Shown one piece after another: positions 31,814 to 49,414 of a stretch of 64,000 nt of DNA. The stretch lies in assembly GCA_016932015.1 (NCBI GenBank), contig JAFGDQ010000066.1, positions 23,617 through 87,616 on the forward strand, in the 5' to 3' direction. The stretch's first letter is position 1. Every line of letters starts with the position of its first letter. Position numbers and translations under genes: made by a program. This stretch comes from Spirochaetota bacterium. Its GTDB lineage: Bacteria > Spirochaetota > UBA4802 > JAFGDQ01. Below the pieces are notes generated by a model. It did not search any database. It was not told where the DNA came from and saw only the letters and a list, made by a program, of their open reading frames with translations.

Positions 31814-32726
31814 TATTCTATTCGGATTCGTGCTGGATCTTATTTTCGGTGACCCGTATACTTTTCCTCACCCTGTTAGATTCATTGGAAAGTATATTGA
31901 GATTCTCGAAGAACCTCTGAGGAAAATATCAAGCCTTAAAATTGCAGGAATACTGCTGACAGTCATAGTTGTCATAACCGCCTATTTTGTGACTTTGTAT
32001 TTTTCGGCAATTTCCATAGTCCTTGAAATATTTATAATTTATACTATCTTTTCAACAAGAACGCTTTCCAATGAAGCAATGAATGTGTATTCATGCCTGA
32101 AGTCAGGTGATCTTAATTCCGCAAGAATACAGATAAGTTATCTTGTAAGCAGGGACACTGACTGTATGAAAGAAGAGGATATTATAAGAGCAACGGTGGA
32201 GACCATATCCGAAAATATTGTTGATGGAATAATATCGCCGCTATTCTATCTTTTTATCGGCGGCGCTCCGCTTGGAATGGCTTATAAAGCGGCAAGCACT
32301 CTTGATTCAATGGTCGGTTATAAAAATGAAACATATATAGATTTCGGCTGGGCAAGCGCGAGACTGGATGATGTGCTTAATTTTATTCCGGCAAGGATTA
32401 CAGCTGTCCTGATTCCGTTTGCCGCATTATTCTGCGGATACGATGCGAAGAATTCATTCCGTATTGCTTTGCGCGACAGGCATAAACACAGCAGCCCGAA
32501 TTCGGCATATTCAGAGGCTGCGGTAGCAGGGGCAATAGGGTGTCAGCTTGGCGGGCCTGCGAGTTATTTCGGGCAGAGAGTGATCAAGCCCTATATAGGG
32601 GACAGGATCAGGGAAGTTAACAGAGGGGATATCATAAGAACAATAAGGATTATGTATTTTACTTCTTTTCTCGGGCTCGTGCTCGGATGCTTTGTGCTTT
32701 ATATTGTTAAAATGTTTTTTACTTAA
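31797..32726 (+). CDS. cbiB: adenosylcobinamide-phosphate synthase
   Basis: 309 aa membrane protein of the CbiB/CobD family (HPVRFIG motif). Overlaps the cobQ stop. Confidence 0.85.
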   Translation: MFHQINILFGFVLDLIFGDPYTFPHPVRFIGKYIEILEEPLRKISSLKIAGILLTVIVVITAYFVTLYFSAISIVLEIFIIYTIFSTRTLSNEAMNVYSCLKSGDLNSARIQISYLVSRDTDCMKEEDIIRATVETISENIVDGIISPLFYLFIGGAPLGMAYKAASTLDSMVGYKNETYIDFGWASARLDDVLNFIPARITAVLIPFAALFCGYDAKNSFRIALRDRHKHSSPNSAYSEAAVAGAIGCQLGGPASYFGQRVIKPYIGDRIREVNRGDIIRTIRIMYFTSFLGLVLGCFVLYIVKMFFT

Positions 32727-32758
32727 GGACTTTATTTTAATAAGGAAATTTAAAAGGG

Positions 32759-33835: not shown

Positions 33836-34013
33836 TCCATAAACAGGTCCTTCCGGATTTTATCAATGCATTTTGATGAAATTCATGTGGAAATTTAAAC
33901 TCATCCAAATTAATTTTTTACCAAATTAAAAATAATTTGCCTTTATTTGTTTCCGGAGTTATACTTAATGATCCAGCCACTGATCCTGCATAGATAATTA
34001 TTTCCATATAAAC

Positions 34014-35678
34014 GTGAGCTATTTTTTCATGATTAAAAGAGGATTGATTATGAATAAGGCAGAATTTTCCAAAGGTAAATTATTGCTGAAGTTAACTAAA
34101 AAATGCGAAATGTTTTTTTATCCGTTTGTTCTTCCTCTTGGAGTATATTTTGTATATTTCACAGGCGGTTTCGAAGGGGAGACCCTGCTTCATCTTGTAA
34201 TTGGGACAGCTATAGCAGTATCGTTTGTCACTCCAGTAGGCTATGTATATTTATACAGAAAAGTTGCTGTGATTCTGGATGCTTTTAATGATGAAAATTA
34301 CGACGGCCGTTTGATAAAAATAAAAATACTTCATTTGCCATGGATTTTTTCCTTAGCTTCTTCTACGCGCTGGATTGTGGGAGGAAGCATTGCGGTTTTA
34401 TATTGCTCAATAGCAACCGGGCTCACACTGTTACAGGTAATACCTTTCTTATTAATAGTCCCTCTTCTGGCATTAATTCATTTCTCAATGGCATTTTTTA
34501 ATGTTGAAAGCGAGCTTAAGGATCTGCTTTCAATTGATAAAATAAGGGACACCCGGCTTAAAGAGAATGATTTCAGGGGGCTTTCATTTACCAAGCGTGT
34601 ACTTCTGACAGTGATTCCTGTGGCGGCAACTCCAATGATTGTACTTGGCTATCAGCTCATACTTATGAATTTACAGATAAATTTTGAGAAGAATATATCT
34701 CTTTATATTATGCTGATTTTGTTTCTGTCTGCTGCAACGATAGCTCTGCTCGCGTATTTTATGACATCCAATATTAAAGTTACTGTCAGAAATCTTCATG
34801 ACGCGCTTGATAAAATCAAGGACGGGAGACTGGATCTTTCAGGCGTCCCGATGATAACCTCAAGCGAAATAGGAATGATCAGTCAGAGCGCGAATTCCCT
34901 GATTATTAAATTACGTGATGTCATGTCCATGGTGCAGCGCTCAGCGGAAATTGTTTCGGAAATGAGCTCGAATATTCAGGAAGCATCAGGAGGGCTTTCG
35001 CAGGCTGCCAATGAGCAGGCTGCAAGTGTTGAGGAGATACTGGCTACGGTAAATGAACTGCTTTCAACAGTTAAGCAGAATGCCGAAAGTGCCGGAGAGG
35101 CCGAGAACCTTGCGGACAATTCATACAAGCTCGCTGAGAATGGAAACAAGGTTATGGATGAAGCTGTAAACACCTTTTCTGAAGTAAGTAAGTCGGCAGA
35201 AAAGATCAGCAGTATAATCGAAATAATAAACAGCATTACATTCCAGACAAATATCCTGTCATTGAACGCTGCTATTGAGGCCGCGCGCGCAGGCGAGCAC
35301 GGGCGGAGTTTTTCCGTTGTTGCGGGTGAAGTCCGTAATCTCGCGCAGCGTTCCGCAGAATCGTCCAAAGAGATTGCCAAATTGATTGAAATGTCGGTTA
35401 ATCAGATTAATGATGGAGCAAAACTTGCAAAGGAAAGCGGATCGTCCCTGAAGAAAATTTACGAGGCGGTATCTCTTGTTCATCAGATGACGTCAGAAAT
35501 AAATAATGTCAGCGGAGAGCAGAAGACCGGGCTGCAGCAGATAGCTGATTCAATATCGCAGACTTCATCCGTAACGCAGGAGAATGCGTCAGCTGCGGAG
35601 GAATTATCTGTTGCCGCGGATTCATTGCGCAGCAATGCGTCTGAGCTGAAGGATACTGCCAGGTATTTTACTATGTAG
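34014..35678 (+). CDS. methyl-accepting chemotaxis protein
   Basis: N-terminal multi-TM region, HAMP, conserved MA signalling domain ([41 protein letters not shown]). Confidence 0.88.
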
Positions 35679-35774
35679 CAGGAAAAGAGTTAAAGGTTCG
35701 TTCCCGGAAGGCCGGATAAATAAATTCGATTTGATTCAGGATGATATTTTTTTCAAATACGGAAAGTTTTAACG

Positions 35775-36668
35775 TTATTGAGTAAGGCAAATCCCGAGCC
35801 CGATTTTCCTTTGATATACATTATAGTCAATCAGACTTTCACCATAACCTTCCCAGTAATGGAAAATCCATTTCATACTGTTTGTTGCCATGGGAACAGT
35901 CAGATTTACTTCAAATGATCCTTTTTTCCAGCGCTGATGGTAGCGGAATGTTCCTGAAAGCCAGGTATTAAATAAAGAAGGAAATTTAGCGGTCAGATTC
36001 AGCTCTCCGTATCCGTAATATCGGATAATGTCGGGATTGTCATCCCTATCCTCGTCTGTAGAATCCTTCTTTTCTTTTTCCGGAAACCTGTACCATAGTT
36101 TCAGTGATGCGATTAAAAAATCATTTTCATAATACGGAGTAAAATATATCCTGTTCCAGCTTCGCGACTCAGGCAGCTCCTGACCGTTTGATTCGTGTTC
36201 AAGTCCCAAATCTGTACGTATTCCGTACCACATTTTTGTCCGAATGAAGAGCTCGGGATTGAAATTATTTTCACGGAAAGGGGACGAATTATCAATATCA
36301 TACGCCTGCCAGAATGATTTCTGCGAATAAGCGAAATAAAATGCCCATCCGTAAAATCTTAAGAGGCGCTGCTTTACACTTATCTGGAACTTGATTTCTT
36401 TATTCTTGCGGTCATTTGTATGATTACCTAGAGTAATAGGCAGAACATAATTCTGTTTATGCGTGGAAAAACCGTTCTCAACATTATTTGATTTATTGTA
36501 GTCAATGATTTCTTCAACAGACGGAAGCTCTAAATCTGCAGCAGAATCGCCTGTGGGCTGTTCTAGCTCTTTTTCCGCTCTTAGCGAAGATCTGAATACC
36601 ATAATTATCGCGAGCAGAAAATAAAAGATGCGATGCGTCTTATGCGTCTTGATTATTTTTGATATCAT
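35775..36668 (-). CDS. pldA: outer-membrane phospholipase A1
   Basis: Signal peptide. OMPLA-type motifs (YRFY...FAYSQKSFW, LGLEHESNG). Beta-barrel length. Confidence 0.7.
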   Translation of the reverse strand: MISKIIKTHKTHRIFYFLLAIIMVFRSSLRAEKELEQPTGDSAADLELPSVEEIIDYNKSNNVENGFSTHKQNYVLPITLGNHTNDRKNKEIKFQISVKQRLLRFYGWAFYFAYSQKSFWQAYDIDNSSPFRENNFNPELFIRTKMWYGIRTDLGLEHESNGQELPESRSWNRIYFTPYYENDFLIASLKLWYRFPEKEKKDSTDEDRDDNPDIIRYYGYGELNLTAKFPSLFNTWLSGTFRYHQRWKKGSFEVNLTVPMATNSMKWIFHYWEGYGESLIDYNVYQRKIGLGICLTQ

Positions 36669-37036
36669 TTTATATTTTTAAATCTCATAGATAATAGTTA
36701 TATATCCTGAAATTGTTTAGTCAATAAAATTTTAATTGGATCGCTAATAAAGGCGCAACGCTTATGATTTAAAATTGTTGCCGGATGAGGTAAAATCAGT
36801 ATAATGTATGCAATTAAGGAAAAACCATAAAACGCTATTATCTTTGTTCCGGTTTAACATAATAAAAATAGAATTGAGGAATATTTAATACAAGAATTTT
36901 CAGGTGAATAATTCCATTAAATTTTATGGACTTATATATGATTTTATGGTAAAATTCTTAATAAAGTAACGCAACCCGATTTGCTTATTATGATAGTTTT
37001 ACATAATGCGGGCTTGAAAGCATTTAAGGTCATAAT

Positions 37037-40000
37037 ATGAAAGGCTCTAATAAAAGCAAAGCTGAACTTATTGCTGAACTGAACGAGATGCGGGAACGTG
37101 TTTCCGAACTGGAAAAATCGGAGATCAAATGTAAACAGGTTGAGAATAAAATGCGTGAAGAGAATGTCCGGTTTCAATCCGCTTTCGACTCAATGCCGGA
37201 CGGCCTGTCAATACAGGACAAAGACTACAACATTCTTTTCCAGAACAAATTAACAAGCAGTATTTTTAAAAACACTTTAGGTGAAAAATGTTATAAAGTT
37301 TATGAAGGCCTTGATGCGGTTTGTGAAAATTGTGCGGTGGAAATGGCATTCAGGGACGGGAAACCGCATGTTTCCGTAAGAAAAAATCTGATGCTGTCCG
37401 GAGAAACTGTTTACTGGGAGAATTCCGCGAATCCTGTCAGAAATGAGAATGGTGAAATAGTCGCATGTCTTGAAATTAATAGAGACATTACTGAAAGCAA
37501 ACGGGCTGAGCAGAAAATTATGGATGATGAGTTCCGTTACAGAACCGTAGCTGATTTTACAAATGACTGGGAATACTGGCAGAATTCCGACGGGTCACTG
37601 AATTATGTTTCGCCTGCCTGTGAAAAAATATCCGGATATTCCGCGGAGCAGTTAATACGGAATCCGAAGCTTCTGGATGAGTCTGTGTGTGATGAGGACA
37701 GGCTCATCTGGGAAAACCATTCTCATGATCCGGATCAGCTCATTCAGAAGAAAAGAGAGATTGAGTTTCGAATAAAAAGAGCTGACGGTACTATAATCTG
37801 GATTGAGCATAACTGCCGCCGGATTAAAAATGAAAACGGCGTATTTATGGGTTACCGCTGCAGGAACAGGGATATTACATCTCTGAAAAATACGGAAGAG
37901 GAGTTGAGAAGCAGCCGCCAGTTCCTGTATGATCTTATTGACCACAGCAGTGCAATTATCTGCGTCAAAGACCGTGAAGGACGTTTTGAACTTGTCAACC
38001 GGAAATGGGAGGAGGATTCGGGAATAAATCGCGAATATGCTATAGGTAAAACGGATAAAGAATTGTTTCCGGGAATGGACGGCGCAGAATACCGGACTTT
38101 TGATCTTGAAGTGATGGAATCAGGGGCTGCTAAAGAGTTTGAGATGATTCTGCAAGGGGAAGAGGGGAATAGATATATTCTTAATGCCGTTTTTCCCGTA
38201 AGGAACAGTGACGGCAGTATAAGGGGTACGTGCGCAGTTGGAACAAATATCACCGATTATAAGGTGATTGAGGAGGAGCTGAGAAGCAGCAGACGTTTTC
38301 TTTCGGAAGTAATTGAGCACAGCGCATCCCAGATAGCAGTTAAAGATATTGAAGGCCGTTATACCCTGGTCAATCAGGAATGGGAAAAAGAAACGACTTT
38401 TAAACGCGAGTATGCTCTTGGTAAAACAGATGAAGAATTATACAGTAAAGAGGACGCGATCAGGTTTCGTTCTGATGATAAAAAGGTCATCGAATCCGGA
38501 AAGCCGAAAGTTTTCGAGCTTGCTTTGGATGGGGAACAGGGAAGAAAATATATTCTTAATACTATTTTTCCTGTAAAGGACAGCGACGGCAGAATTACCG
38601 GAACCTGTGCTATGGGGACAAATGTAACGGAATATAAGCTGATTGAGGAAGAGTTAAGAAACAGCCGTCAGTTTTTATCAATACTTATAGAGTTCAGTCC
38701 TGCCGGTTTTTGCGTTAAAGATAATGAGGGCAGATATTTACTGGTCAACAGAACATGGGAAAATGAGACAGGTCTTAACCGTGAAGATGTTATTGGAAGA
38801 ACAGATGAAGAAATTTATCCTTTAGAAAAGAATAAGGCTAATGAAATCATGAGTTATGATAAGGAGGTTATGGAATCCGGGGAAAGGAAAGATTTTGAAT
38901 TTACGGTGGGCACCACAAATCTCCTGAATAATGTTTACCCTTTAAAAGATGAAAAGGGCAGAACTACGGGTGTTTGCTCAATTTCAGTTGACATTACAAT
39001 GCAAAAACATCAGGAAGCGGAACTGCTCAGGCTGCGTAATTATCTGTCCAACATAATTGATTCCATGCCATCCGTACTGGTTGGAGTGGATGCCGATATA
39101 AAAATTACCCAGTGGAATAAAACAGCAGAACAGGTTACAGGTATAGCCCCTGATGATGCAATGAACAAATCCCTGTACGAAGTATTTCCCGGAATGGAAT
39201 TTATAAAAGAGGAAATAAAAACAAGCATCAGATCCAGGGAGATAAAAAAAGAACACAGGCTGACTCAGCATCCGGAAGGCGGTGCTACTTATGAAGACGT
39301 TACTATTTATCCTTTGATAGCCAGTGAAATTGAAGGCGCTGTTATTCGTATTGATGATATAACGGAAAAAATGCGCATTGAAGAGATGATGATACAGAAT
39401 GAAAAGATGCTTTCAGTTGGAGGGCTTGCAGCAGGGATGGCGCATGAGATAAATAATCCGCTGGCAGGCATGCTTCAGACCGCAGGTGTTATGGCTAACC
39501 GGCTGAGTGCTTCTTCAAATATTCCCGCAAATATGGAAGCTGCTGAACAGGCCGGTACCACAATGGAAGCAATTCAGCATTATATGGAAATACGCAGTAT
39601 CCCGCGCATGATCGATACAATAAATGAATCAGGCAAGCGTGTAGCGGATATCGTATATAATATGCTCACTTTCGCCAGAAAGAGTGAGGCAAGTATTCTC
39701 CCTGTAGATATTGAAGAGCTTATCAGCAAAACAGTTGAACTTGCTGCCACTGACTATGACCTTAAAAAACAGTACGATTTTAAACTGATTGAAATTATTA
39801 CTGACTATGAGAAAAACCTGCCTCCTGTACCCTGTGAACAGGCCAAGATTCAGCAGGTTCTTCTGAACATCCTGCGCAACGGTGCTCAGGCTATGCAGGG
39901 AGTGAATACAAAGAATCCCAGGATTATTCTCCGGACGTATTTTTTAGAGGAACGGAAAATGGCTGTAATTGAGATAGAGGATAACGGGCCCGGGATGAGT

Positions 40001-40192
40001 GAAGAAACACGCAAGCGAATATTTGAGCCGTTTTTTACAACTAAACCGGTGGGAGAGGGCACTGGACTGGGTTTAAGCGTATCGTATTTTATTATTACTG
40101 AAAACCATCATGGAACAATAAATGTTGAATCCTCCCTCGGGCATGGAACAAAATTTATTATTCATTTACCTGTTGAAAGGACTGTATCATGA
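37037..40192 (+). CDS. multi-PAS sensor histidine kinase
   Basis: Coiled coil, then at least 6 PAS/PAC modules, HisKA (MAHEINNPL), HATPase_c (DNGPGM...GTGLGLS). No TM segments. Confidence 0.9.
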   Translation: MKGSNKSKAELIAELNEMRERVSELEKSEIKCKQVENKMREENVRFQSAFDSMPDGLSIQDKDYNILFQNKLTSSIFKNTLGEKCYKVYEGLDAVCENCAVEMAFRDGKPHVSVRKNLMLSGETVYWENSANPVRNENGEIVACLEINRDITESKRAEQKIMDDEFRYRTVADFTNDWEYWQNSDGSLNYVSPACEKISGYSAEQLIRNPKLLDESVCDEDRLIWENHSHDPDQLIQKKREIEFRIKRADGTIIWIEHNCRRIKNENGVFMGYRCRNRDITSLKNTEEELRSSRQFLYDLIDHSSAIICVKDREGRFELVNRKWEEDSGINREYAIGKTDKELFPGMDGAEYRTFDLEVMESGAAKEFEMILQGEEGNRYILNAVFPVRNSDGSIRGTCAVGTNITDYKVIEEELRSSRRFLSEVIEHSASQIAVKDIEGRYTLVNQEWEKETTFKREYALGKTDEELYSKEDAIRFRSDDKKVIESGKPKVFELALDGEQGRKYILNTIFPVKDSDGRITGTCAMGTNVTEYKLIEEELRNSRQFLSILIEFSPAGFCVKDNEGRYLLVNRTWENETGLNREDVIGRTDEEIYPLEKNKANEIMSYDKEVMESGERKDFEFTVGTTNLLNNVYPLKDEKGRTTGVCSISVDITMQKHQEAELLRLRNYLSNIIDSMPSVLVGVDADIKITQWNKTAEQVTGIAPDDAMNKSLYEVFPGMEFIKEEIKTSIRSREIKKEHRLTQHPEGGATYEDVTIYPLIASEIEGAVIRIDDITEKMRIEEMMIQNEKMLSVGGLAAGMAHEINNPLAGMLQTAGVMANRLSASSNIPANMEAAEQAGTTMEAIQHYMEIRSIPRMIDTINESGKRVADIVYNMLTFARKSEASILPVDIEELISKTVELAATDYDLKKQYDFKLIEIITDYEKNLPPVPCEQAKIQQVLLNILRNGAQAMQGVNTKNPRIILRTYFLEERKMAVIEIEDNGPGMSEETRKRIFEPFFTTKPVGEGTGLGLSVSYFIITENHHGTINVESSLGHGTKFIIHLPVERTVS
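37894..39015 (+). repeat. three tandem ~375-nt PAS-module repeats within the kinase gene
   Basis: Units start with EEELRSSRQFL / EEELRSSRRFL / EEELRNSRQFL. Each is ~124 aa with a conserved internal string (VKD.EGR..LVN..WE...G..RE...GKTD.E). Confidence 0.8.
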
Positions 40193-40596
40193 GCGAACCT
40201 GTTAACACAGTTTTAATTATTGATGATGAGGATTTTATAAGGCAGAGCCTTGCAGACTTTTTTGAGGACAGGCAGTGGAATGTCCTGCAGGCTGAAAGCG
40301 GGGAGCAGGCGCTTGAACTGCTGAAAACGGAATCTCCTGACGTCGCGCTTGTTGACATTCGTCTGGGCGGGATGGACGGCAATGAATTTATTCTGAAAGC
40401 CGGTAAAATAAAACCGGACATGGCTGTCATCATCTGCACAGGATCTCCTGAATATAATATTCCGCCGGAAATACTCAATATACCTTCTGTACTGGATCAT
40501 TCTGTTAAAAAGCCGGTAACTGATATGGATCAGCTGGAAAGAGATCTCATGCGGCTTATTACTGATATACAAAATAAGAAGGTGTCAGATGAATGA
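40189..40596 (+). CDS. single-domain response regulator (CheY-like receiver)
   Basis: 135 aa. IDDED acidic pocket, phospho-acceptor D in ALVDIRLGGMDG. Start overlaps the kinase stop. Confidence 0.85.
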   Translation: MSEPVNTVLIIDDEDFIRQSLADFFEDRQWNVLQAESGEQALELLKTESPDVALVDIRLGGMDGNEFILKAGKIKPDMAVIICTGSPEYNIPPEILNIPSVLDHSVKKPVTDMDQLERDLMRLITDIQNKKVSDE

Positions 40597-41716
40597 TAAC
40601 AGCTCTGTAACAATTCTTATTATTGATGATGAAGCTGCCATCCGGCAGAGTTATACCTTTTGCCTGGAGGATATGGGTTATCGGATTCTGGAAGCGGAAA
40701 ACGGCCGTGTCGGGGTTGATATATTTGAAAGGGAACACGCGGATCTGGTTCTGGTTGATTTGCGGATGCCTGAAATGGACGGCCTGGAGGTGCTCTCATA
40801 CATTACGGAAAATTCTTCCGATACTCCTGTTATTATTGTATCCGGAACCGGTATGATGAGAGATGCTGTGGAAGCATTGCACAGGGGAGCCTGGGATTAT
40901 ATTTTAAAGCCTATTGAGGATATGCTTATTCTTACTCATGCTGTTACAAGCGCTCTTGAAAAAGCAAAGCTTATAAAAGATAACAGGGCATATCAGGAGC
41001 ATCTTGAAAACCTGGTTGCGGAGCGCACAAAGGAACTTGAAAAAAGGAACAGGCAGCTGGAGATTTCCAGGCGTCAGATCATAGGAATTCTGTCACAGGC
41101 TGCAGAGTACCGTGATTTTGAAACCGGCAATCATTTTCTGCGTGTTTCGGAATATTCAGCCTGCATTGCCGGCTGCCTTGGATGGGATGAGGAGCAGGTG
41201 AATAATATTCATCTCGCAGCCCCGATCCATGACATAGGAAAGATCGGCATTCCGGACAGCATTCTGCTGAAAAACGGTACTCTTACTGATGATGAATGGG
41301 ACCATATGAAAATGCATTGCCAGTACGGGAAAAATATTCTGGCAATAAATAAATTTGTTAAAAAATTTCTTAATATTGAGGAACTGGATGAGGAGGAGAT
41401 TCAGTCCGATTACAGCGATTCAATAATAGAAATGGCTGCGAATATCGCGTTAAACCATCATGAATACTGGAACGGTGAAGGTTATCCGCTGGGTCTCAAG
41501 GGAGAGGAAATTCCTATAGAGGCACGGATCACATCAGTGGCTGATGTTTTTGATTCGCTTGGGAGTCACCGCCCCTATAAGGAACCCTGGCCTGAAGAGG
41601 AATGCCTGAAATATATCGAGGAAAATTCAGGCATCAGGTTTGATCCTGATATTGTAGAAATATTTTTGCAGAATATTGATACGATCAGGGAGATAAAGGC
41701 GAAATATACGGATTAG
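40589..41716 (+). CDS. response regulator with HD-GYP phosphodiesterase output domain
   Basis: REC (IIDDEAA...DLVLVDLRMPEMDG), then HD domain with HD..K and HHEYWNGEGYP (HD-GYP) motifs. Confidence 0.85.
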   Translation: MNDNSSVTILIIDDEAAIRQSYTFCLEDMGYRILEAENGRVGVDIFEREHADLVLVDLRMPEMDGLEVLSYITENSSDTPVIIVSGTGMMRDAVEALHRGAWDYILKPIEDMLILTHAVTSALEKAKLIKDNRAYQEHLENLVAERTKELEKRNRQLEISRRQIIGILSQAAEYRDFETGNHFLRVSEYSACIAGCLGWDEEQVNNIHLAAPIHDIGKIGIPDSILLKNGTLTDDEWDHMKMHCQYGKNILAINKFVKKFLNIEELDEEEIQSDYSDSIIEMAANIALNHHEYWNGEGYPLGLKGEEIPIEARITSVADVFDSLGSHRPYKEPWPEEECLKYIEENSGIRFDPDIVEIFLQNIDTIREIKAKYTD

Positions 41717-41733
41717 ATTTTTATCGTGATTTT

Positions 41734-41769
41734 TAGTACAAATACAGCGGGTGCGAATCTGGATTCCAT
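41734..41769 (-). pseudogene. orphan fragment: last 12 codons (WNPDSHPLYLY*) of the asnA-like gene
   Basis: 31/34 nt identical to 43291-43324. All three differences are synonymous third positions. Bounded upstream by an in-frame stop. Confidence 0.7.
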
Positions 41770-41881
41770 TTAATGCTAAGTTTTTTTTATCTGAATAACC
41801 TCTGGTTTAAGAAAGAGATTATTCAGATAATTGCAGATTAGCCTTTTTTTAATATTTTTATAAAAAAGTATTTCCAGATAA

Positions 41882-43123
41882 TTAATCTATACCTACACAG
41901 TTAACAAAATATGAGCCGTAAGAATTTTGTGAATATGAATAACTTGCGCCTCCATCACCCCATTTCCAAAAATTAGTATAATCAACAGTTGTCTGCCAGT
42001 AGGTTGACGTTGATCTTGGCGTAAAGAATCCCATAAAGTAGTAAATTGATGAATCAGGTGGGAGGGGTACTGCTGTATATGTAGTATCAGTATTATTATA
42101 GTAAAATCTATTCCATGTGTAGCTTGATGAATTTTTAATCCATAGTGCAAAATGGTCTGATTCTAAATGAGGATCTTCTGTATGCGTCATTTCAGTTGCA
42201 GGAATATATGTATCACCCCAGGTTAAAGTTTCTCCCATTCCTGTATTATACGAACTCGCACTCCATGTAATTGATCCCGGTTTAGAAGCGTAAGTAACTT
42301 TGTGTACAGAATCAGGTTGATTCTGAGAGCTTGTGCTTGAGCTGATATGAGTTGATATTATACCTGCTGTCCCATTGACGACCCTGAACGTGTAAATAGT
42401 CGATGCGCTGTCAGCCCATCCTTCCTGCCCGTAATCATCCTTGTAGCTTTCAATTCCAGAATAGTCTACAGCAGATATTGTATAATAATAATGAATATCC
42501 GCTGTTACTGAAAGATCGTCATATGAATCGTCCACTGAAGAACCGACATAAGTAAAAGGTCCCCAAGCTGATTCTCCTCTATATATTTTAATATATGCTG
42601 CATCTCCATAATGGTTCCAGGATATATTTACATAATCTGGATACGTCCCTTGACTAGGCCAATTCAATCCTGGTGTATCAATGGTTGATCCCGAATTTGA
42701 TGACCATCCTTCATCTGCTGTACTTTTTGAACTAGTGGAATTGGCAATAGTAGAACTTGTTGCTGTTACTGCATACCAGTAATGAGTGTCCTGAGTCGCA
42801 GATGTGTCAGTCCAAGAAGTTATTGTTGCTGGATCAGCCGAGCCAACTTCCTCATTGATATCATCTGGTGAGGTACCGCGAAATATGGCATACCAATCAG
42901 CATTACTGACGGAATTCCAGCTAATGATAACATAGTTAGCATAGATACCGTCAGTTGCAGTGACTCCTGTCGGTACTGAAAGTCGGCTGTCATCGCTACT
43001 ACTACCACCGCCACAATAAAGAAAACCAGACATAAATAAACACGATAAAACCAAACATAATTTTTTCATAAAATGTCTCCAGATAAAATAGTATAAAGGT
43101 TTTAAAGGCGAAAGGGGCTTCAC
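41882..43123 (-). CDS. cell-surface lipoprotein with fibronectin-III-like repeat modules
   Basis: Signal plus Cys (FMSGFLYCGGGSS). Two modules with (Y.NYV.ISWN....A.Y.I.RG.S) signature. Ser/Thr-rich linkers. Trp-rich C-terminus. Confidence 0.6.
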   Translation of the reverse strand: MKPLSPLKPLYYFIWRHFMKKLCLVLSCLFMSGFLYCGGGSSSDDSRLSVPTGVTATDGIYANYVIISWNSVSNADWYAIFRGTSPDDINEEVGSADPATITSWTDTSATQDTHYWYAVTATSSTIANSTSSKSTADEGWSSNSGSTIDTPGLNWPSQGTYPDYVNISWNHYGDAAYIKIYRGESAWGPFTYVGSSVDDSYDDLSVTADIHYYYTISAVDYSGIESYKDDYGQEGWADSASTIYTFRVVNGTAGIISTHISSSTSSQNQPDSVHKVTYASKPGSITWSASSYNTGMGETLTWGDTYIPATEMTHTEDPHLESDHFALWIKNSSSYTWNRFYYNNTDTTYTAVPLPPDSSIYYFMGFFTPRSTSTYWQTTVDYTNFWKWGDGGASYSYSQNSYGSYFVNCVGID

Positions 43124-43290
43124 CTTATAGTTTTTTATATGAAGCAGGTAAATATAAATTATGACTTATTTATATTTAAATAAAAAACCAGAATAATTTA
43201 TGGTTTATAGTAGTCAAGCCGGTTACAAAAAAGAATTATATTTTTTTTATAATATAGAAATGTAATTTTTGTATTTTGCAGGGTCTTTTT

Positions 43291-44526
43291 TTAATACAAA
43301 TACAGCGGATGCGAATCCGGATTCTTCCCGAAGAAAGTAACATCGTCAATCTTCTGTATTTTCTCGCCTTTCAGAAGAGTGTACAGGGTACGCTCAATGC
43401 CTATGCCTCCGCCGAAAGTGTCAGGGAAAAGCGGGTTCCCGTTTTCGTGCTTCATGGCTACGAACTGAAGGAAGGGGCCGTAGCCGCCGAGTTCGTCAAT
43501 ATTTTCGATGTTTCCGTTCTTCAGAACAGGCCTTGAAGGAAGTATCTTGTTGTCTATGATTCTTTCGACAATCGGCTCATACAGCCATTCGCGAATGGCG
43601 CCTGAAAGGATTTCTCTTGCCTGAGAGTGTTTGCCTGTTTTCAGGTCAATGCTTTTTGCGAGTATATCATAGTTAAAAACATTGGTGGAGTTTACGTTTG
43701 AGAAATCAATCCTGGTTCCGTCCGGATAAAGATAAGGATAAATGAGGTCATAGTTTTCACGAAGCAGTCCCGTAATCCAGAAAAACTGCGCGTCAGTTGC
43801 TTCGCCTGCTTTCTCCTCAAAGTTTTTTGCACCGTATTTTTTAACGCAGTCGTCCTTGTGAAAACTCGGGAACGGAGTTTCGGGAACGCTCAAAACAATG
43901 CTGAGGTCTTTCAGGTTTTGCGAATTATTTTTGTTAATCTCTTCGCAGGCGAATACTATCATTCTTTCAAAAAAATCTTTTGCTTTGACCATGTCTTCGT
44001 TCAAAGCATCAAGTACCATCTGTTCCTTATTAAAGTAATCATCGAGAGTTATTTTTCTATCGCGTTTTATCTCAATGTCCATCTGTGAAAAATCTGCAAG
44101 GTATTTACCGCGCTGTGCTCCTGTTGGGCTTTCTATTTCAAGACGAATGTTGGGGGAGTCCACAAAGATACCTTTGATGCGCGGATTGGAGCATGCGAGA
44201 AATTTGCTGTAAATCATGCTGTGCGTGGTAAGATATGTATGGCCCTTGTATTCTATTGCAGGTGTATGTTCAATATCATGCGCGAGCGGATCTGTTATAA
44301 TGCTTAACATGATTTTTTCAAGGTTGAAAAGTCCTTCCTTTACAAGAAACTGGTTCATTGCGTTTACAAAGCTGGTGCGTATTGCAATGACATTATAAAG
44401 TTCGTCGGATATCCATTTGCCGGAGTAATTCGCTTTTATGTAATCCTCCATGGTTTCGCCGCCTTCATTAATTGCTGACTGGAACCTGAAAAGACTTTCG
44501 CCTATAACCTTGATTTTATCTTCCAT
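43291..44526 (-). CDS. asnA: AsnA-like aspartate-ammonia ligase (class II aaRS catalytic-core paralogue)
   Basis: 411 aa. Class II aaRS-like core with motif-3-like GGGIGIERTLYTLL. No anticodon-binding domain. Longer than E. coli AsnA, so the call is tentative. Confidence 0.6.
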   Translation of the reverse strand: MEDKIKVIGESLFRFQSAINEGGETMEDYIKANYSGKWISDELYNVIAIRTSFVNAMNQFLVKEGLFNLEKIMLSIITDPLAHDIEHTPAIEYKGHTYLTTHSMIYSKFLACSNPRIKGIFVDSPNIRLEIESPTGAQRGKYLADFSQMDIEIKRDRKITLDDYFNKEQMVLDALNEDMVKAKDFFERMIVFACEEINKNNSQNLKDLSIVLSVPETPFPSFHKDDCVKKYGAKNFEEKAGEATDAQFFWITGLLRENYDLIYPYLYPDGTRIDFSNVNSTNVFNYDILAKSIDLKTGKHSQAREILSGAIREWLYEPIVERIIDNKILPSRPVLKNGNIENIDELGGYGPFLQFVAMKHENGNPLFPDTFGGGIGIERTLYTLLKGEKIQKIDDVTFFGKNPDSHPLYLY

Positions 44527-44731: not shown

Positions 44732-47620
44732 ATGAGCTTAATAAGTGAAAAAAACGCGAAAGAGATAGTTACTCTTGTAAATGAAAAATCACTGTCATGT
44801 GAGGAACTGCTGAATGACTGTTTCAGCCAGATTGAGAAATATGATCCTGTGCTTGAAAGCTTTATTTCTTTATATGATAAAGAGACACTTGTAAAAGAGG
44901 CAAGGGAGAGCGACAGCAGGCGGTCAAAAAACGCACAATTGAGCGCTATTGACGGGATTCCTCTTGCTGTTAAAGATAATATCCATTCACAAGGCATACC
45001 TACAACATGCGCTTCCAGAATACTTGAAAATTATAATCCTCCTTATGATGCTACTGCCGTAAGTCTCATTAAAAACAGCGGCGGTATTATACTCGGTAAG
45101 ACCAATATGGATGAATTTGCCATGGGGTCAACATGCGAGCATTCAAGCATGTGCCATACACGGAATCCGTGGGACATTCACCGTGTACCGGGCGGCTCAT
45201 CTGGCGGGTCTGCGGTTGCTGTTTCGGCTGGCATGACTCCGTTTGCTCTCGGAAGCGATACAGGCGGGTCTATTCGTCAGCCTGCGGCTTTCTGCGGAGT
45301 AACAGGTTTAAAACCGACATACGGGCTTGTCTCACGCTACGGGCTTGTAGCATATGCTTCATCGCTTGACCAGATAGGACCAATGTCACGTGACGTTTAC
45401 GGAAACGCGCTGCTGCTGAATATAATAAGCGGTTATGATGTGAATGACTCCACATCGCTTAACCATGAAAAGACAGATTATACTGCAAAACTCGGACAGG
45501 ACATAAAAGGAAAGCGCATAGCTGTTTTCAGGGAGCTTTTAAAAGAGGGAATTTCTCCACAGGTAATGAGAGAATTTGAGAAATCTCTTAAAGTATTAAA
45601 AGAGCAGGGCGCATTAATAGAGGAAGTTTCTTTTGAAGCAGTCAGGTATGTGATCGCAGCGTATTATTTTATTGCATGCGCGGAAGCATGCTCAAATCTT
45701 TCCAGATACGACGGCGTGAAATACGGATTCAGAAGCGGAAAACAGACAGATTATCAGGAAATGCTTTTCACAACGCGTTCCTACGGATTCGGCAAGGAAG
45801 TAAAGAAAAGAATTCTTCTTGGAAACTTTGTCCTTTCCTCAGGTTATTATGATGAGTATTACAGAAAAGCGCAGAAAGTCAGAACACTGATAAGAGATGA
45901 ACTTAAAAAGATTTTTGAAACTGCTGATGTAATTGCCATGCCGACAACTCCTGATATTGCTTTTAAGCATGGAGAGAGCAGCCTTGATCCTATGAGGATG
46001 TATCTTTCTGATATTACAACTGTTATACCGAATCTTTCCGGCCTGCCTGCCATCAGCATTCCGTGCGGCATGGCTGACGGTATGCCTGTAGGGCTTCAGT
46101 TCATAGGCAAACCGCTCGATGAGCAGATGCTGCTGCAGGCGGCATCAATTTACGAAAGCAGCAGAAAAGAAAAATATATTCCTGAGCTTGATCATATTCT
46201 GGATGAGAATGTACCGGGTAAACCGCATTCGGATTCACAGAAGAAAGATGTTTCAGTAAAAGCCTCTGTTTACACTATGAAGGATGTTAAGAAGATTTCC
46301 GAAACCTACTCGGAAAGAACATCTAAAAAGAGCAGAGTATACTGCAGGGACCTTGATTCAAAAGAAGGAAAGAAAGTAACTCTGGGCGGCTGGATTCACA
46401 GCAAAAGAAATCTCGGCGGAATTGATTTTTATATACTCAGGGATAAAACAGGATTTACACAGCTTGTACTTGAAGGCGAAAAGCCGATAGAAAAGCTGAA
46501 CCTTGAAACTGTAGTTGAGGTTTACGGCCGCGTTACAAAAGAAAAACGCAGCCCGTATAGAAATATAGAAATTAAAGTTGAAAAGCTGGATATACTCGGC
46601 CATGCGGAAAGCAGTCTGCCGTTAAATATCAACAGCAGTCTTGAAAATATTAATTTACCGACAATACTCGACAACAGAACCGTATCGGTAAGAAATCCTG
46701 AAATACAGTCAGTTTTCAGGCTGCAGTCAAAAATAGTTAAGCATTTTTCGGATTATCTGAGAGACAATGATTTTACCGAGATAAAGACTCCGAAGATAGT
46801 TTCAAGCGGTGCAGAGGGCGGCACTAATATTTTCGAGCTTAAGTACTTTGACCGCTCAGCTTATCTTGCGCAGTCCCCGCAGTTTTACAAGCAGATCATG
46901 GTGGGCAGCGGCATGGAAAGAGTATTTGAGGTCGGGCCTGTGTTCAGGGCTGAACATCATGATACTGTGCGTCATTTAAATGAATACACCAGCATGGATT
47001 TTGAAATGGGATTCATTGAGAATGAGCAGGATGTCATAGACATGCAGGAAGCTCTGATAAAATATATTTTTAAAAATCTAAAGAATGATTTTAAAGGGGA
47101 CGCAGGGTATAAGAACATGTCATTTGATGTTCCCAAAAAATTCCCGCGCATACATTTTCTTGAAGCTATGGAGATTCTGTCATCGCTCGGCGTAAGGGAT
47201 ATGGAGGAAGGAGATATTTCCCCGGCAGGTGAAAAAGCGTTATGTGACTATTTCGAGGAGAAGGAAAATTCTTCCTTTGTTTATGTCGTAGGCTACCCTG
47301 TAAAGAAAAGGCCTATGTATACAATGCCTGATGAAAGGCTGCCCGGTTATACCAGAAGCTTTGACCTTTTATATAAGGGAATTGAAATAACAACAGGCGG
47401 GCAGCGCATTCACGATTATCATCAGCTCAGGGATAACATTGTGGATTTCGGTTTTAATCCGAGAGAGTTTAAAGATTATCTTGATATATTTAAGTACGGA
47501 ATGACCCCGCACGGCGGTCTTGGAATGGGGCTTGAAAGGCTTACAATGAAAATAATGAATCTTAAAAACATCAGGGAAGCAGCACTGTTCCCTAGAGATA
47601 TAAACAGGCTTACGCCTTAA
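44732..47620 (+). CDS. gatA-aspS: fusion protein: Glu/Asp-tRNA amidotransferase subunit A (GatA) + archaeal-type aspartyl-tRNA synthetase
   Basis: Residues ~1-485 carry the amidase signature GGSSGGSAVAVSAG...GSDTGGSIRQPAAFCGVTGLKPTYG. After a ~45-aa linker come an OB-fold (VTLGGWIHSKRNLGGIDFYILRD) and class II motifs FRAEHHDTVRHLNEY and GGLGMGLERLTMKIM...FPRDINRLTP. Single uninterrupted 962-codon ORF. Confidence 0.85.
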   Translation: MSLISEKNAKEIVTLVNEKSLSCEELLNDCFSQIEKYDPVLESFISLYDKETLVKEARESDSRRSKNAQLSAIDGIPLAVKDNIHSQGIPTTCASRILENYNPPYDATAVSLIKNSGGIILGKTNMDEFAMGSTCEHSSMCHTRNPWDIHRVPGGSSGGSAVAVSAGMTPFALGSDTGGSIRQPAAFCGVTGLKPTYGLVSRYGLVAYASSLDQIGPMSRDVYGNALLLNIISGYDVNDSTSLNHEKTDYTAKLGQDIKGKRIAVFRELLKEGISPQVMREFEKSLKVLKEQGALIEEVSFEAVRYVIAAYYFIACAEACSNLSRYDGVKYGFRSGKQTDYQEMLFTTRSYGFGKEVKKRILLGNFVLSSGYYDEYYRKAQKVRTLIRDELKKIFETADVIAMPTTPDIAFKHGESSLDPMRMYLSDITTVIPNLSGLPAISIPCGMADGMPVGLQFIGKPLDEQMLLQAASIYESSRKEKYIPELDHILDENVPGKPHSDSQKKDVSVKASVYTMKDVKKISETYSERTSKKSRVYCRDLDSKEGKKVTLGGWIHSKRNLGGIDFYILRDKTGFTQLVLEGEKPIEKLNLETVVEVYGRVTKEKRSPYRNIEIKVEKLDILGHAESSLPLNINSSLENINLPTILDNRTVSVRNPEIQSVFRLQSKIVKHFSDYLRDNDFTEIKTPKIVSSGAEGGTNIFELKYFDRSAYLAQSPQFYKQIMVGSGMERVFEVGPVFRAEHHDTVRHLNEYTSMDFEMGFIENEQDVIDMQEALIKYIFKNLKNDFKGDAGYKNMSFDVPKKFPRIHFLEAMEILSSLGVRDMEEGDISPAGEKALCDYFEEKENSSFVYVVGYPVKKRPMYTMPDERLPGYTRSFDLLYKGIEITTGGQRIHDYHQLRDNIVDFGFNPREFKDYLDIFKYGMTPHGGLGMGLERLTMKIMNLKNIREAALFPRDINRLTP

Positions 47621-47641: not shown

Positions 47642-49414
47642 ATGAAACATAAATCAAAAATAAATATTGAAAATCTGATTGAGCTTGCGTCGTTTGAAGT
47701 AAGTGAAGAGGAAAAGAAACAGTTGGAGAATGAACTGGATGAATTTCTCGCGTATGCTCATGTAATAGACAATGCTCCGTGCGGAGACATGACACCCTCA
47801 AGCCATGCGGTCGAAAAAGAAGCATATATGCGTGAGGATGAAATCAGCGCGTGGGACAAAGTTGAAAAGATAATGGGAAACAGCCCTGTAACGGAAGGGC
47901 AGAGCTATCTTGTTCCTCCCCAGAAAACAACAGCAGTTATGCTGGATGATGAAAACGAGGAAAGCGAAAAGCCGTATGACGGAGAACTGGAGCCTGTAAT
48001 AGGCCTTGAGGTTCATGCGAGGCTGAAAACAAAGAGCAAGCTGTTCTGCAGCTGCTCAACACAATTCGGCGATGAAGCTAACAGCAATGCGTGCCCTGTG
48101 TGTTCAGGCCAGCCCGGCGTTCTTCCTGTATTAAACCGGGAAGCAGTCAACATGGCTATCATTGCAGGGCTTGCTGTCGGATGCACTGTTAATAAGCACT
48201 CCGTATTCGCGCGAAAAAATTATTTTTATCCCGACCTTCCAAAAGGATACCAGATCTCGCAGTTTGAAGAACCTGTATGCTCCGGCGGCGGTGTTGACAT
48301 TGAAATAGACGGAAAAGTAAAAACAGTAAGGCTTAACAGAATTCACATGGAAGAGGACGCGGGTAAGATGGTTCATGTGGGAGCTCCCGGAATATGGGGC
48401 GCAAAAGCAAGTGCTGTCGACTTTAACAGATGCAGCGTTCCTCTTATTGAGATAGTAACGGAACCGGATCTTTCGTCTCCCGAAGAAGCAAGGGAATACG
48501 TTACCATGCTCAGGGCAGTGCTTGTTTCTCTTGGAATCTGTGATGGAAATATGGAAGAGGGCAGCCTTAAATGTGATGCGAACGTTTCCGTAAGGCCTGT
48601 CGGCTCAAAGAAACTCGGCGTTAAAGTGGAAATCAAGAACATGAACTCATTCAAGGCTATTGAAAGAGCTCTTGATTTCGAAATCGTCCGCCTGAAAAAG
48701 ATGAAGCAGAAAGGCATACGCATAAAACAGGAAACCAGGGGATGGGACGAAAGCGGACAGAAAACATACTCAATGAGGGGCAAAGAGGAGTCCCAGGATT
48801 ACAGGTATTTTCCTGATCCTGACCTTCTTCCTGTAGTGCTTACTGATGAATGGATAAACAGCCTTAAAGACCGCGTTACGGAATCTCCTTTGAATGGGAA
48901 GAAGAAGTGCATTGATAATTATTCTTTTTCTGAAAATGAAGCCCGCCTGTTTATGGTTAATCCTTCCTACAGCGAGTATTTTGAAAAGGTGCTGCAGTAT
49001 TATGATAATCCCAGGGCACTTGCCAACTGGTTTTTCAGCGAGATATTGTCCCAGACAGGCGGAGACATGGGAAGTATACATATTACACCTGACGATCTGG
49101 CAGAATTCCTCAAGAGAATAGATAAGGGAGAAATAAGCGGAAAGATTGGCAAGGATGTCCTGAAAAAAGCGTTCACTGAAAAGAAAGGCCTTGTTGAAAT
49201 AATTGAAAACGAGAACCTGAAGCAGGAGACTGATACAGGAGTTATTGAGAAGATAATAGATGAAATTATTGAAAAAAATCCTTCTCAGGTAGCTGAATAT
49301 AAAAGCGGTAAAACTAAACTTCTCGGATTCTTTGTGGGAGAGACAATGAAAGCTTCTCAGGGCAAGGCTAATCCGAAAATTGTTAATGAGATTTTAAGAG
49401 AGAAGCTTAAGTAA
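47642..49414 (+). CDS. gatC-gatB: fusion protein: GatC + GatB amidotransferase subunits
   Basis: N-terminal ~95 aa resemble GatC (NIENLIELASFEVSEEEKKQL...MREDE). An acidic linker follows. GatB starts at EPVIGLEVHARLKTKSKLFCSC...CPVCSGQPGVLPVLN and includes the C-terminal YqeY-like tail. 590 aa against ~480 for GatB alone. Confidence 0.85.
   Translation: MKHKSKINIENLIELASFEVSEEEKKQLENELDEFLAYAHVIDNAPCGDMTPSSHAVEKEAYMREDEISAWDKVEKIMGNSPVTEGQSYLVPPQKTTAVMLDDENEESEKPYDGELEPVIGLEVHARLKTKSKLFCSCSTQFGDEANSNACPVCSGQPGVLPVLNREAVNMAIIAGLAVGCTVNKHSVFARKNYFYPDLPKGYQISQFEEPVCSGGGVDIEIDGKVKTVRLNRIHMEEDAGKMVHVGAPGIWGAKASAVDFNRCSVPLIEIVTEPDLSSPEEAREYVTMLRAVLVSLGICDGNMEEGSLKCDANVSVRPVGSKKLGVKVEIKNMNSFKAIERALDFEIVRLKKMKQKGIRIKQETRGWDESGQKTYSMRGKEESQDYRYFPDPDLLPVVLTDEWINSLKDRVTESPLNGKKKCIDNYSFSENEARLFMVNPSYSEYFEKVLQYYDNPRALANWFFSEILSQTGGDMGSIHITPDDLAEFLKRIDKGEISGKIGKDVLKKAFTEKKGLVEIIENENLKQETDTGVIEKIIDEIIEKNPSQVAEYKSGKTKLLGFFVGETMKASQGKANPKIVNEILREKLK

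Follow-up and report, generated by a model that had tools for sequence, protein, structure and literature searches.

A stretch of 1,521 bp (41767-43287) that lies directly downstream of an asnA-like gene and holds one gene was very probably acquired as a genuine cassette insertion. It was found in a 64,000-nt piece of DNA from a Spirochaetota genome, hereafter the window, and was bracketed by two direct copies of the last codons of the asnA-like gene (Table 1). A duplicated gene tail flanking foreign DNA is a classic scar of integration, and alone it would mark an ordinary decayed islet. Recurrence sets this case apart: the only other member of the lipoprotein family carried here was found in a different organism, with the same scar at a different gene. 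This points to a minimal cassette, small and rare, that delivers one surface protein and is moved by machinery not in view. We infer the mobility of the cassette, the origin of its repeats at integration and the kind of enzyme involved from this anatomy.

Table 1. Positions of the repeat copies, genes and arms in the window.
Feature	Coordinates	Strand	Description
Repeat copy A	43288..43324	(-)	Last base of K codon, NPDSHPLYLY (10 codons), TAA and AAA; joined to asnA-like body
Repeat copy B (orphan asnA tail)	41730..41766	(-)	Non-ORF; 16 nt from stop of convergent HD-GYP gene
asnA-like gene	43291..44526	(-)	Intact target; class II aminoacyl-tRNA-synthetase catalytic-domain paralogue, related to archaeal asparagine synthetase A
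HD-GYP response regulator	40589..41716	(+)	Convergent neighbour of asnA-like gene once cassette is removed
Variable region, cob operon to asnA	33836..43290	.	MCP, phospholipase A1, PAS histidine kinase, two response regulators, cassette
Left arm	43070..43287	(-)	218 nt, AT-rich; holds lipoprotein ribosome-binding site
Right arm	41767..41881	(-)	115 nt; 74-nt imperfect palindrome 41772-41845, followed by a T-run on the + strand, 41846-41860
Right arm end adjoining repeat			...CATTAAATG
Cargo lipoprotein gene	41882..43069	(-)	395 aa; two FN3 domains (~residues 30-220) and a ~175-aa C-terminal domain of unrecognised fold

Alignment of the two copies within the window gave a direct repeat of 37 nt with 34 of 37 positions identical. 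When up to three mismatches were allowed, the 34-nt asnA tail matched two sites in the 64-kb window, and 0.00 were expected from 100 shuffles. Similarity ran 3 nt beyond the stop codon (TAAAAA) and stopped one base inside the K/W codon. The orphan copy read WNPDSHPLYLY and a stop, had no start codon and followed an in-frame stop 7 codons upstream. Copies A and B differed at three codons (CCG/CCA, CAT/CAC and TAT/TAC), all by synonymous third-position transitions. The repeat, the orphan's nature as a pure fragment and the synonymous third-base character of the differences had been proposed in a preliminary description of this DNA, and all of them held. The orphan had been placed there at 41734-41769, one base off; its stop codon occupies 41733-41735, and the tail accordingly spans 41733-41768. 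An independent Logan assembly of SRR13394437 (L007) was 100% identical to the window from 30589 to 44233, and the repeat-bracketed structure is therefore no chimera of binning or assembly. As a control, the two flanks of each of 99 genes in the window and five further loci were compared with each other. Scores were at most 13 for 97 genes, and the lipoprotein gene scored 28. No third, decayed copy of the asnA tail was present at the other junctions of the variable region, where scores stayed at shuffle level.

It is exceedingly unlikely that the pair is a coincidental likeness, a generic element (repeat or terminator) or the template and variable copies of a diversity-generating retroelement. 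Copy A does contain a weak hairpin of 5 bp with a T-rich tract behind it, which was flagged as terminator-like; however, the tail folded no better than shuffled sequence, and an Rfam search of 41500-43500 gave no match above noise. The palindromes GAATCCGGATTC and CGGATTCGCATCCG in copy A were likewise discarded, being unconserved in orthologues and folding no better than shuffles. A generic element, the alternative named in the preliminary description, does not fit a sequence that occurs only twice in the window and that in every orthologue encodes the conserved C terminus of asnA. With regard to a retroelement, a single difference of the three puts an A in the orphan, but the other two lie away from adenines and no reverse transcriptase domain was found in the window.

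The target ORF encodes 411 aa and ends in ...FFGKNPDSHPLYLY* with copy A attached. The protein matched PF00152 (3e-08), and 1011 homologues were found. Its match to NF005054 ('asparagine synthetase A', NCBIfam) reached 129.5 bits against a cutoff of 309 and covered residues 36-261 only; the best PDB relatives, the archaeal AsnA-type chains 1nnh and 3p8t, aligned over residues 39-157 only. Strict identity as asparagine synthetase A was rejected on these two grounds, the score under the cutoff and the partial similarity, and the safe name is 'asnA-like aaRS paralogue'. Its tail, ...GKNPDSHP, did not vary in 20 aligned asnA-like sequences.

The lipoprotein gene was absent downstream of asnA in nine relatives with about 80% amino acid identity. 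Each of these carried a single asnA tail and neither a lipoprotein gene nor an orphan copy, and no orphan tail was found in loci L001-L006. An empty site, with asnA convergent on the HD-GYP gene, was not found when genome and metagenome contigs were scanned with the asnA protein, the best relative being 82% identical in amino acids. The contigs bearing the closest HD-GYP homologue (68% identity) end 61 nt past the gene and hold no asnA tail. The window and loci L001, L003 and L006 all have asnA with gatA-aspS and gatCB on one side and cobD/cbiB/cobQ on the other, and the content in between varies, with a different downstream neighbour of asnA in nearly every relative. In L001 cobD stands directly next to asnA, the whole 9.4 kb found between them in the window being missing. 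Citrate synthase and then nitrogen-metabolism genes occupy the interval in L003, L006 and the contexts of P0023, P0029 and P0031; L005 has a methyltransferase followed by cob genes, and L002 a HAD hydrolase. The asnA-cob interval of this spirochaete clade is thus a hotspot of gene exchange.

The cargo gene most likely starts at the ATG at 43069, which is preceded by GGAGA 7 nt upstream and opens a signal, MKKLCLVLSCLFMSGFLYC. The preliminary description was right that a single FN3-like gene lies between the copies, but the GTG start at 43123 that it had assumed is disfavoured. No Pfam or NCBIfam model matched the lipoprotein sequence. In the AlphaFold model, pLDDT was 75-96 at residues 30-220, fell to 58 in the inter-domain linker at 130-140 and was below 50 over most of the C-terminal part. 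Foldseek with this model returned tandem FN3 structures (E = 1e-10). The C-terminal domain, residues 216-395, was found in one other protein, P0276 (residues 219-399), among 1.84 billion representatives; searches of viral contigs with the lipoprotein, and of phage and plasmid records with the C-terminal domain, gave no match. The GC3 of the gene, 0.275, was the lowest among the 48 ORFs of the window (z = -2.5). The insertion proposed in the preliminary description is thus supported by the absence of the gene in all nine relatives, the lowest GC3, the lack of a recombinase and the non-generic nature of the repeat.

The left end of the insert begins with AAGACCCTGCAAAA (43274-43287). The shorter motif AAKACSCTGCAAAA had three more matches in the window at one mismatch, all within coding sequence. 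One of them fell in the FGase tail; an FMN-reductase gene lies immediately downstream and is absent there in relatives. The FMN-reductase gene was rejected as a second case, its apparent 27-nt flanking repeat being at chance level. In the right arm, the palindrome folded on the minus strand at -34.3 kcal/mol (z = -5.3); together with its T-run it looks, from the sequence, like the terminator of the convergent HD-GYP operon.

P0276, the only full-length homologue of the lipoprotein among the 1.84 billion representatives (44% identity), is encoded on L010, a 1.7-kb contig from SRR27370448, by a gene with a GC3 of 0.273. This gene also lay between two copies of a direct repeat, at 28-76 and 1521-1569, which were 78% identical over 49 nt and matched at 30 of 35 positions in a core of 35 nt; the repeat scored 20, the highest score among shuffles being 13 (z = 9.7). 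An upstream ORF of the same orientation held the first copy in its tail, and a TGA directly followed the orphan copy; the upstream ORF fragment had no Pfam match and no counterpart in the window or the other loci. The distance from repeat to start codon was 212 nt in L010 and 218 nt in the window. The repeat boundaries set the register of the comparison independently. In that register the two inserts, which open with AAGACCCTGCAAAA in the window and AATACGCTGCAAAA in L010, agreed at 12 of their first 14 nt and at 15 of their first 20. At the right ends 3 of 14 positions agreed, and the right arms measured 115 nt and 32-45 nt. Unconstrained alignment of the non-coding arms of the two loci gave noise only, and at both loci the left end matched the reverse-complemented right end no better than shuffles, so terminal inverted repeats were not detected. 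The L010 repeat was wholly unlike the asnA-tail repeat in sequence, which indicates that the repeats derive from the target and are not a core carried by the cassette family. The fact that the same anatomy and a matching insert start recur at L010 indicates, moreover, that the left end of the cassette is defined.

These observations suggest a non-autonomous, one-gene cassette composed of a sequence-defined left end, an AT-rich leader of about 200 nt, the gene for a secreted FN3 lipoprotein and, on the right, a short arm. Its point of entry would be 3 nt past the stop codon of the asnA-like gene, and its orientation that of asnA. Both 37-nt repeats would be copies of the target, the asnA tail, and the asnA-like gene would therefore have stayed intact while the second copy was stranded beside the former neighbour, the HD-GYP regulator. 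As to mechanism, att-type integration by a recombinase supplied in trans is our tentative choice, and we hold it with less than even confidence. Conservative recombination at a gene 3' end by an enzyme encoded elsewhere would leave an attL/attR-type footprint comparable to the integrase-less remnants of integrative elements. By now the cassette would have become stranded, perhaps held there in part by the mismatches between its repeats. Among the ORFs of at least 150 aa in the 64-kb window, none showed an integrase, transposase or other recombinase domain, in agreement with the preliminary description. Nor was an integrase-bearing element found at the asnA tail in the nine relatives (at most 82% identical), and none of the viral contigs scanned with a degenerate asnA-tail pattern and an asnA alignment carried the tail. 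Further features count against att-type integration. Because the repeats of the two cassettes are unrelated, the model needs two recombinase specificities, yet the insert end adjoining the repeat is conserved. Both cassettes are down to the same single gene, an improbable outcome if two larger elements had decayed independently. The unconserved right ends, the unequal right arms and a family of two known members also speak against it.

A different origin of the repeats would be a very long target-site duplication. An integrase or transposase acting in trans would have made a stagger of about 36 bp near the stop codon, gap repair would have doubled the segment, and the orphan would have drifted later. 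In its favour, the conserved insert terminus directly abuts the repeat; the repeats are unrelated but alike in core length (37 nt in the window, 35 nt in L010), and at either locus a stop codon is found no more than 3 nt from the insertion point. The argument from equal length is weakened if the L010 repeat reaches 49 nt. We know of no prokaryotic transposon with target duplications this long; the longest ruler-like cases are the 14-15 bp duplications of casposons and the duplication of the CRISPR repeat by Cas1-Cas2. Terminal inverted repeats are lacking, the right end is unconserved, and with two known members only the cassette family gives no sign of a proliferating element. On balance we consider a long duplication unlikely. 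Also unlikely, in our estimate, is the further possibility that the cassette is an undescribed non-autonomous mobile unit, with a single defined end and neither inverted repeats nor its own recombinase, which is inserted at the stop codons of co-oriented genes by a staggered cut of about 36 bp. Its surface-protein gene would then be delivered by ruler-like chemistry of the Cas1 type.

The three differences between the copies bear on the same question. All seven sequenced orthologue tails carried CCG/CAT/TAT, as does the copy attached to asnA, so the CCA/CAC/TAC variants of the orphan are unique. This is the pattern expected of a duplication in which all three changes fell in the unconstrained orphan, and the L010 copies, which mix synonymous and non-synonymous differences, also suit free drift. 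Against it, three synonymous changes out of three under neutral decay have a probability of 0.005-0.037. The preliminary description had concluded from the synonymous-only differences that the tail came from a related but distinct lineage. That low probability favours its reading, but the uniqueness of the variants does not: the changes hit three of the only four codons whose third base is fixed among orthologues, a pattern with a probability of about 0.024 for a functional foreign tail, as calculated from the orthologue tails. On sequence grounds, then, the evidence for a foreign copy cuts both ways.

A tail that was once coding in a donor would also suit a one-off event of illegitimate or homology-facilitated recombination during horizontal transfer into the intergenic hotspot. 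A fragment of a related genome (asnA tail, spacer and lipoprotein gene) would have found its anchor in asnA by homology, with an illegitimate joint immediately before the resident tail and no dedicated mobility, and the likeness of L010 would be coincidental. The asnA-cob content, which differs in nearly every relative, and the pattern of variable cargo between conserved flanks known from minimal mobile elements agree with this scenario. It does not account for an anatomy that recurs at an unrelated target with the same leader length and 12 of the first 14 nt shared, nor for the lack of such a flanking repeat at 97 of 99 control genes, and we regard it as improbable.

The polarity of the event could also be reversed. 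The lipoprotein gene would then be the older neighbour of asnA, and the block from the MCP gene to the HD-GYP gene (34014-41716) would have come later from a genome where it abutted asnA, bringing a 37-nt scrap of foreign asnA tail. Between the orphan and the HD-GYP stop there are 16 nt, as is natural for convergent genes (the corresponding gap is 1 nt in L005), the three variants of the orphan match no orthologue, and the entire 9.4-kb stretch is missing in L001. However, the GC3 of the block is typical (0.40-0.44) and it is the lipoprotein gene that is the outlier, as the composition check proposed in the preliminary description also brought out. Neither the far end of the block nor the junctions inside it hold a remnant of the asnA tail, and the repeats bracketing the homologue in L010 are left unexplained. 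A later arrival of the block is thus very unlikely.

Several element classes were rejected. A DDE or other transposon is at odds with the lack of terminal inverted repeats and with a single conserved end (12/14 left vs 3/14 right). Transposons with short target duplications (2-15 bp) do not match repeats of 37 and 35-49 nt that are 92% and 78-86% identical. An integron gene cassette was dismissed since the 74-nt palindrome ends without the GTTRRRY or RYYYAAC of attC and no integrase is present; integron insertion, besides, does not duplicate the tail of a neighbour. A diversity-generating retroelement was excluded on the grounds given above.

Should the repeats prove to be target duplications of about 36 bp, they would be the longest known in prokaryotes and would reveal a way of integration not seen before in bacteria. 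If they are att sites, the cassettes would be compact recombinase-less elements that parasitise integrases in uncultured Spirochaetota.

Partial likenesses exist to several known systems. In Neisseria, minimal mobile elements hold variable cargo that lies between conserved flanking genes and is exchanged by transformation and homologous recombination. The locus studied here resembles them in its conserved asnA/gat and cob operon flanks, in cargo that differs per relative and in the absence of mobility genes. The Neisseria elements, however, do not duplicate the end of a flanking gene, and their cargo has no defined terminus. Duplication of a target segment by staggered, ruler-like integration is known from the CRISPR repeat duplicated by Cas1-Cas2 and from the 14-15-bp duplications of casposons, to our knowledge the only prokaryotic precedent for duplications near the length of the cassette repeats. 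Here the outcome alone is alike, as the cassette has no Cas1, CRISPR array or terminal inverted repeats. Integrase-driven islands have attachment sites of about 40 nt; one copy from the host and one from the element border the insert, and older, partial copies are displaced into variable islands (bioRxiv 10.1101/2020.12.28.424599). The tycheposon-shaped islands of Prochlorococcus are similar to our locus in these sites of about 40 nt and in a hypervariable island beside a conserved gene (bioRxiv 10.1101/2020.12.28.424599). Tycheposons nevertheless target tRNA or tmRNA genes and carry tyrosine or serine integrases and replication genes, whereas the cassette has a protein-coding tail as its target and none of these hallmark genes.

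The closest parallels are elements at the 3' ends of protein-coding genes. SCC elements of staphylococci insert at the 3' end of rlmH (orfX), and pseudo-SCC elements, which have no recombinase, depend on its supply in trans. The cassette shares with them insertion at the very end of a housekeeping gene and flanking direct repeats that contain that end. SCC repeats consist of one conserved sequence of 15-18 bp recognised at a single target by Ccr serine recombinases, in contrast to cassette repeats of 35-37 nt that are unlike between members. Among CIMEs (cis-mobilizable elements), one example in Streptococcus thermophilus occupies the 3' end of fda, beside ICESt1/ICESt3. CIMEs have lost their integrase and retain attL and attR (PMC5704250). 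Like CIMEs and pseudo-SCC elements, the cassette lies between direct repeats holding the 3' end of an intact target gene (37 nt, 34/37), with the lipoprotein gene alone and no integrase, excisionase or transfer genes between them, and like CIMEs it sits at the edge of a variable region. It differs from them in that no integrase-bearing partner was found for the asnA tail and that the repeats of its two members are unrelated. CIMEs, furthermore, are decay products of varied content, whereas these two distant cassettes share a single gene and its leader.

Two copies of the 3' end of the asnA-like gene bracket a single lipoprotein gene. Each copy is 37 nt long (last codons, stop codon and AAA) and 34 positions are identical; each of the three differences is a synonymous third-position transition. 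Translated, the orphan copy gives WNPDSHPLYLY*; it lacks a start codon, and a stop lies in frame ahead of it. A search allowing up to 3 mismatches found the tail at only 2 sites in the 64 kb, whereas 100 shuffles gave none, and chance or a generic repeat was rejected. The preliminary description had thus rendered the repeat and its synonymous third-base changes correctly, with the orphan coordinates shifted by one base. A binning or assembly chimera was excluded by a Logan assembly of run SRR13394437, which is 100% identical to the window over 30589-44233. A DGR was rejected for the repeat pair, as was an integron cassette for the insert.

Features of the asnA end, of the parallel locus L010 and of the corresponding asnA-cobD intervals
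Feature	Sequence	Coordinates	Strand	Remarks
asnA-like gene	window	43291-44526	minus	ends ...FFGKNPDSHPLYLY-TAA
AT-rich spacer	window		minus	218 nt, between asnA-like gene and lipoprotein gene
Lipoprotein gene	window	41882-43069	minus	395 aa
Stretch 3' of lipoprotein gene	window		minus	115 nt, holds strong 74-nt palindrome
Imperfect palindrome, right arm	window	41772-41845		74 nt, z = -5.3; T-run follows on plus strand (41772-41860 overall)
asnA tail, orphan copy	window	41730-41766	minus	second copy
HD-GYP response-regulator gene	window	40589-41716		convergent; stop codon 16 nt from orphan tail
GatA-AspRS ORF	window	44732-47620	plus	962 aa, AspRS of non-discriminating type
GatC-GatB ORF	window	47642-49414	plus	590 aa
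FMN-reductase gene	window	54844-55488	minus	between FGase and TPR genes
Tandem repeats in 1051-aa histidine kinase	window	37895-38817	plus	three of 375 nt, 67-74% identity; duplicated PAS domains
P0276 gene	L010	289-1488		
Direct repeat	L010	28-76 and 1521-1569		49 nt at 78% identity; 35-nt core 30/35
gatCB gene	L004	4682-6451		41-nt REP-like repeat on both sides
asnA-cobD content	window	33836-43290		MCP, phospholipase A1, PAS kinase, two response regulators, cassette
asnA-cobD content	L001			nothing
asnA-cobD content	L002			HAD hydrolase
asnA-cobD content	L005			methyltransferase, then cob genes
asnA-cobD content	five relatives			citrate synthase, then nitrogen genes (combinations of ammonium transporter, P-II, glutamine synthetase, sigma-54 activator or nif genes)

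In the closest genomes found for comparison the asnA protein was 80-82% identical. The contexts of nine relatives each contained one asnA tail, and neither the lipoprotein gene nor an orphan tail was present in them; an empty site was not seen among them. The upstream side of asnA is kept in relatives (gatA-aspS fusion, gatCB fusion, TPR proteins, FGase, IMPDH), and the cob operon at the far side is likewise conserved. Since the asnA-cobD content is different in nearly every relative, the hypervariable interval is bounded on one side by the asnA 3' end. In the window it is occupied by genes for chemotaxis and c-di-GMP signalling; citrate synthase and nitrogen genes are its commonest content elsewhere. 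No integrase, transposase or reverse-transcriptase domain was detected in window ORFs of at least 150 aa, no tRNA gene was found in the window, and the other junctions of its variable region held no further asnA-tail remnant. The absence of the lipoprotein gene downstream of asnA in relatives and the lack of an integrase agree with what had been proposed from the sequence, as does composition: GC3 of the lipoprotein gene (0.275) is the lowest of 48 window ORFs (mean 0.388, z = -2.5), with typical values in its neighbours. We conclude that the locus shows a genuine footprint, not one due to chance, of the insertion of a single gene where the asnA-like gene ends, in a hypervariable interval. That it arose by one-off illegitimate recombination in a hotspot is an unlikely reading.

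Some contigs break in this neighbourhood. L004, from a relative, ends 90 nt after asnA, and L008 and L009, two independent assemblies, both stop at the same base, 61 nt past the HD-GYP homologue. Repeats that break an assembly, or differences between strains, are possible causes.

Homologues of the cargo were sought exhaustively with HMMER among 1.84 billion representative proteins. Thousands of FN3 proteins matched, one of them at full length: P0276, of 399 aa, with an overall identity of 44%, rising to 53% for the C-terminal domain. Its gene was found on one contig only (L010, 1,747 nt, Logan SRR27370448), where the anatomy is the same as in the window. The first copy of a direct repeat falls within the 3' portion of a co-oriented ORF running off the contig, and TGA comes straight after the second copy, an orphan. 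The repeat scored 20, whereas 300 shuffles reached 13 at most (z = 9.7). As an empirical control, 300-nt upstream and downstream flanks were compared for 99 genes from the window and five loci, and the score was at most 13 for 97 of them. The exceptions were the lipoprotein gene (28) and the gatCB gene of L004, which is flanked by a REP-like element with a GC hairpin (CCAAACCTTCCAA..GTGCCCCCTTTGGGGG.TAGGGGG), an example of a generic repeat, unlike the asnA tail.

In sequence, the L010 repeat shows no relation to the asnA tail, and F/L and R/S replacements are among the differences between its copies. The distance from repeat to start codon is 212 nt in L010 and 218 nt in the window, and GC3 is 0.27 in both genes. 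When the inserts are aligned from the repeat boundaries, which fix the register independently, their first 14 nt are identical at 12 positions (AAGACCCTGCAAAA / AATACGCTGCAAAA) and their first 20 nt at 15, for which we estimate a chance probability of ~1e-4; the right ends agree at 3/14. The left end of the cassette is defined, and the repeats are target-derived; they are not a core that the cassette family brings with it. This second, independent instance around the sole homologue raises the interest of the insertion at the asnA end. The palindrome of the right arm has no counterpart in L010, and no Rfam family was found in the region; the palindrome would act as a terminator-like element for the HD-GYP operon, though it lies inside the inserted segment.

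The cargo carries a spirochaete-type lipoprotein signal (MKKLCLVLSCLFMSGFLYC). Two FN3 domains were confidently modelled (block-mean pLDDT 75-96 over residues 30-220, falling to 58 at the linker that joins them) and matched tandem FN3 structures with Foldseek E of about 1e-10. The C-terminal part of ~175 residues was poorly modelled, and a search for a family match to it found none. The GenBank protein (MBN2040603.1, JW864_11195) has only 217 aa because an internal Met was taken as its start; 395 aa are encoded by the ORF that has a ribosome-binding site and the lipoprotein signal, in agreement with the Logan gene call.

The asnA-like protein matches PF00152 and is a paralogue of the class II aaRS catalytic domain. 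Its scores do not reach the NCBIfam cut-off for asparagine synthetase A models, and archaeal AsnA-type structures match it at residues 39-157 only. It is strongly conserved (1011 homologues), with K401-P407 invariant in 20 diverse sequences. The name 'asnA' is a fair nickname for this aaRS paralogue, its assignment not being established. The GatA-AspRS and GatC-GatB fusions, divergently adjacent to it, would together make a 'fused transamidosome'. The former is kept in several relatives (959-961 aa; L004 and the contexts of P0031 and P0023) and split in L003 (837 and 101 aa), while in L005 the gene call at this place is just a 442-aa AspRS and an amidase gene is absent. Further upstream, FGase and TPR genes are adjacent in L003, L004 and L006; the FMN-reductase gene between them in the window was considered as a second cassette, but its flanking 27-nt repeat (70% identity) is at chance level and it is a plain indel.

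The synonymous differences had been taken to suggest that the incoming copy came from a related but distinct lineage. Under neutral decay of the orphan, three of three synonymous changes have P = 0.005-0.037, varying with transition bias, which favours that claim. The attached tail, however, has CCG, CAT and TAT, as do all seven orthologue tails, and the CCA, CAC and TAC of the orphan are unique among them. In the orthologues four codons have an invariant third base, and these variants hit three of them (probability ~0.024 if synonymous changes fall uniformly on a functional tail). The two probabilities cancel, and the tail sequences therefore do not decide the origin of the copies. That the HD-GYP block arrived later and brought a scrap of foreign asnA tail is quite improbable.

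In both cases the insertion point is no more than 3 nt from a stop codon that ends a co-oriented gene: in the window it follows TAA by 3 nt, and in L010 it directly precedes TGA. Att-type recombination is the usual cause of such repeat scars, and the cassette may, as the favoured though tentative reading, have been inserted in this way by a recombinase supplied in trans. Against it, two unrelated repeats would require two specificities, the same single gene is left in both cassettes, and no integrase-bearing partner at asnA was seen in relatives or viral contigs. A true target duplication of ~36 bp would account for unrelated repeats with similar core length and for an attached tail in the state of all seven orthologues; but inverted repeats are absent, the L010 repeat may be 49 nt, and we know of no precedent of such length among bacterial transposons, and we consider it doubtful. 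For the att-type reading, known systems offer a comparison. Integrase-driven islands have attachment sites of ~40 nt, one copy from the host and one incoming (bioRxiv 10.1101/2020.12.28.424599), and CIMEs without integrase have been defined (PMC5704250). The insertion is best filed with recombinase-less, repeat-flanked islets, as a variant with two known members.
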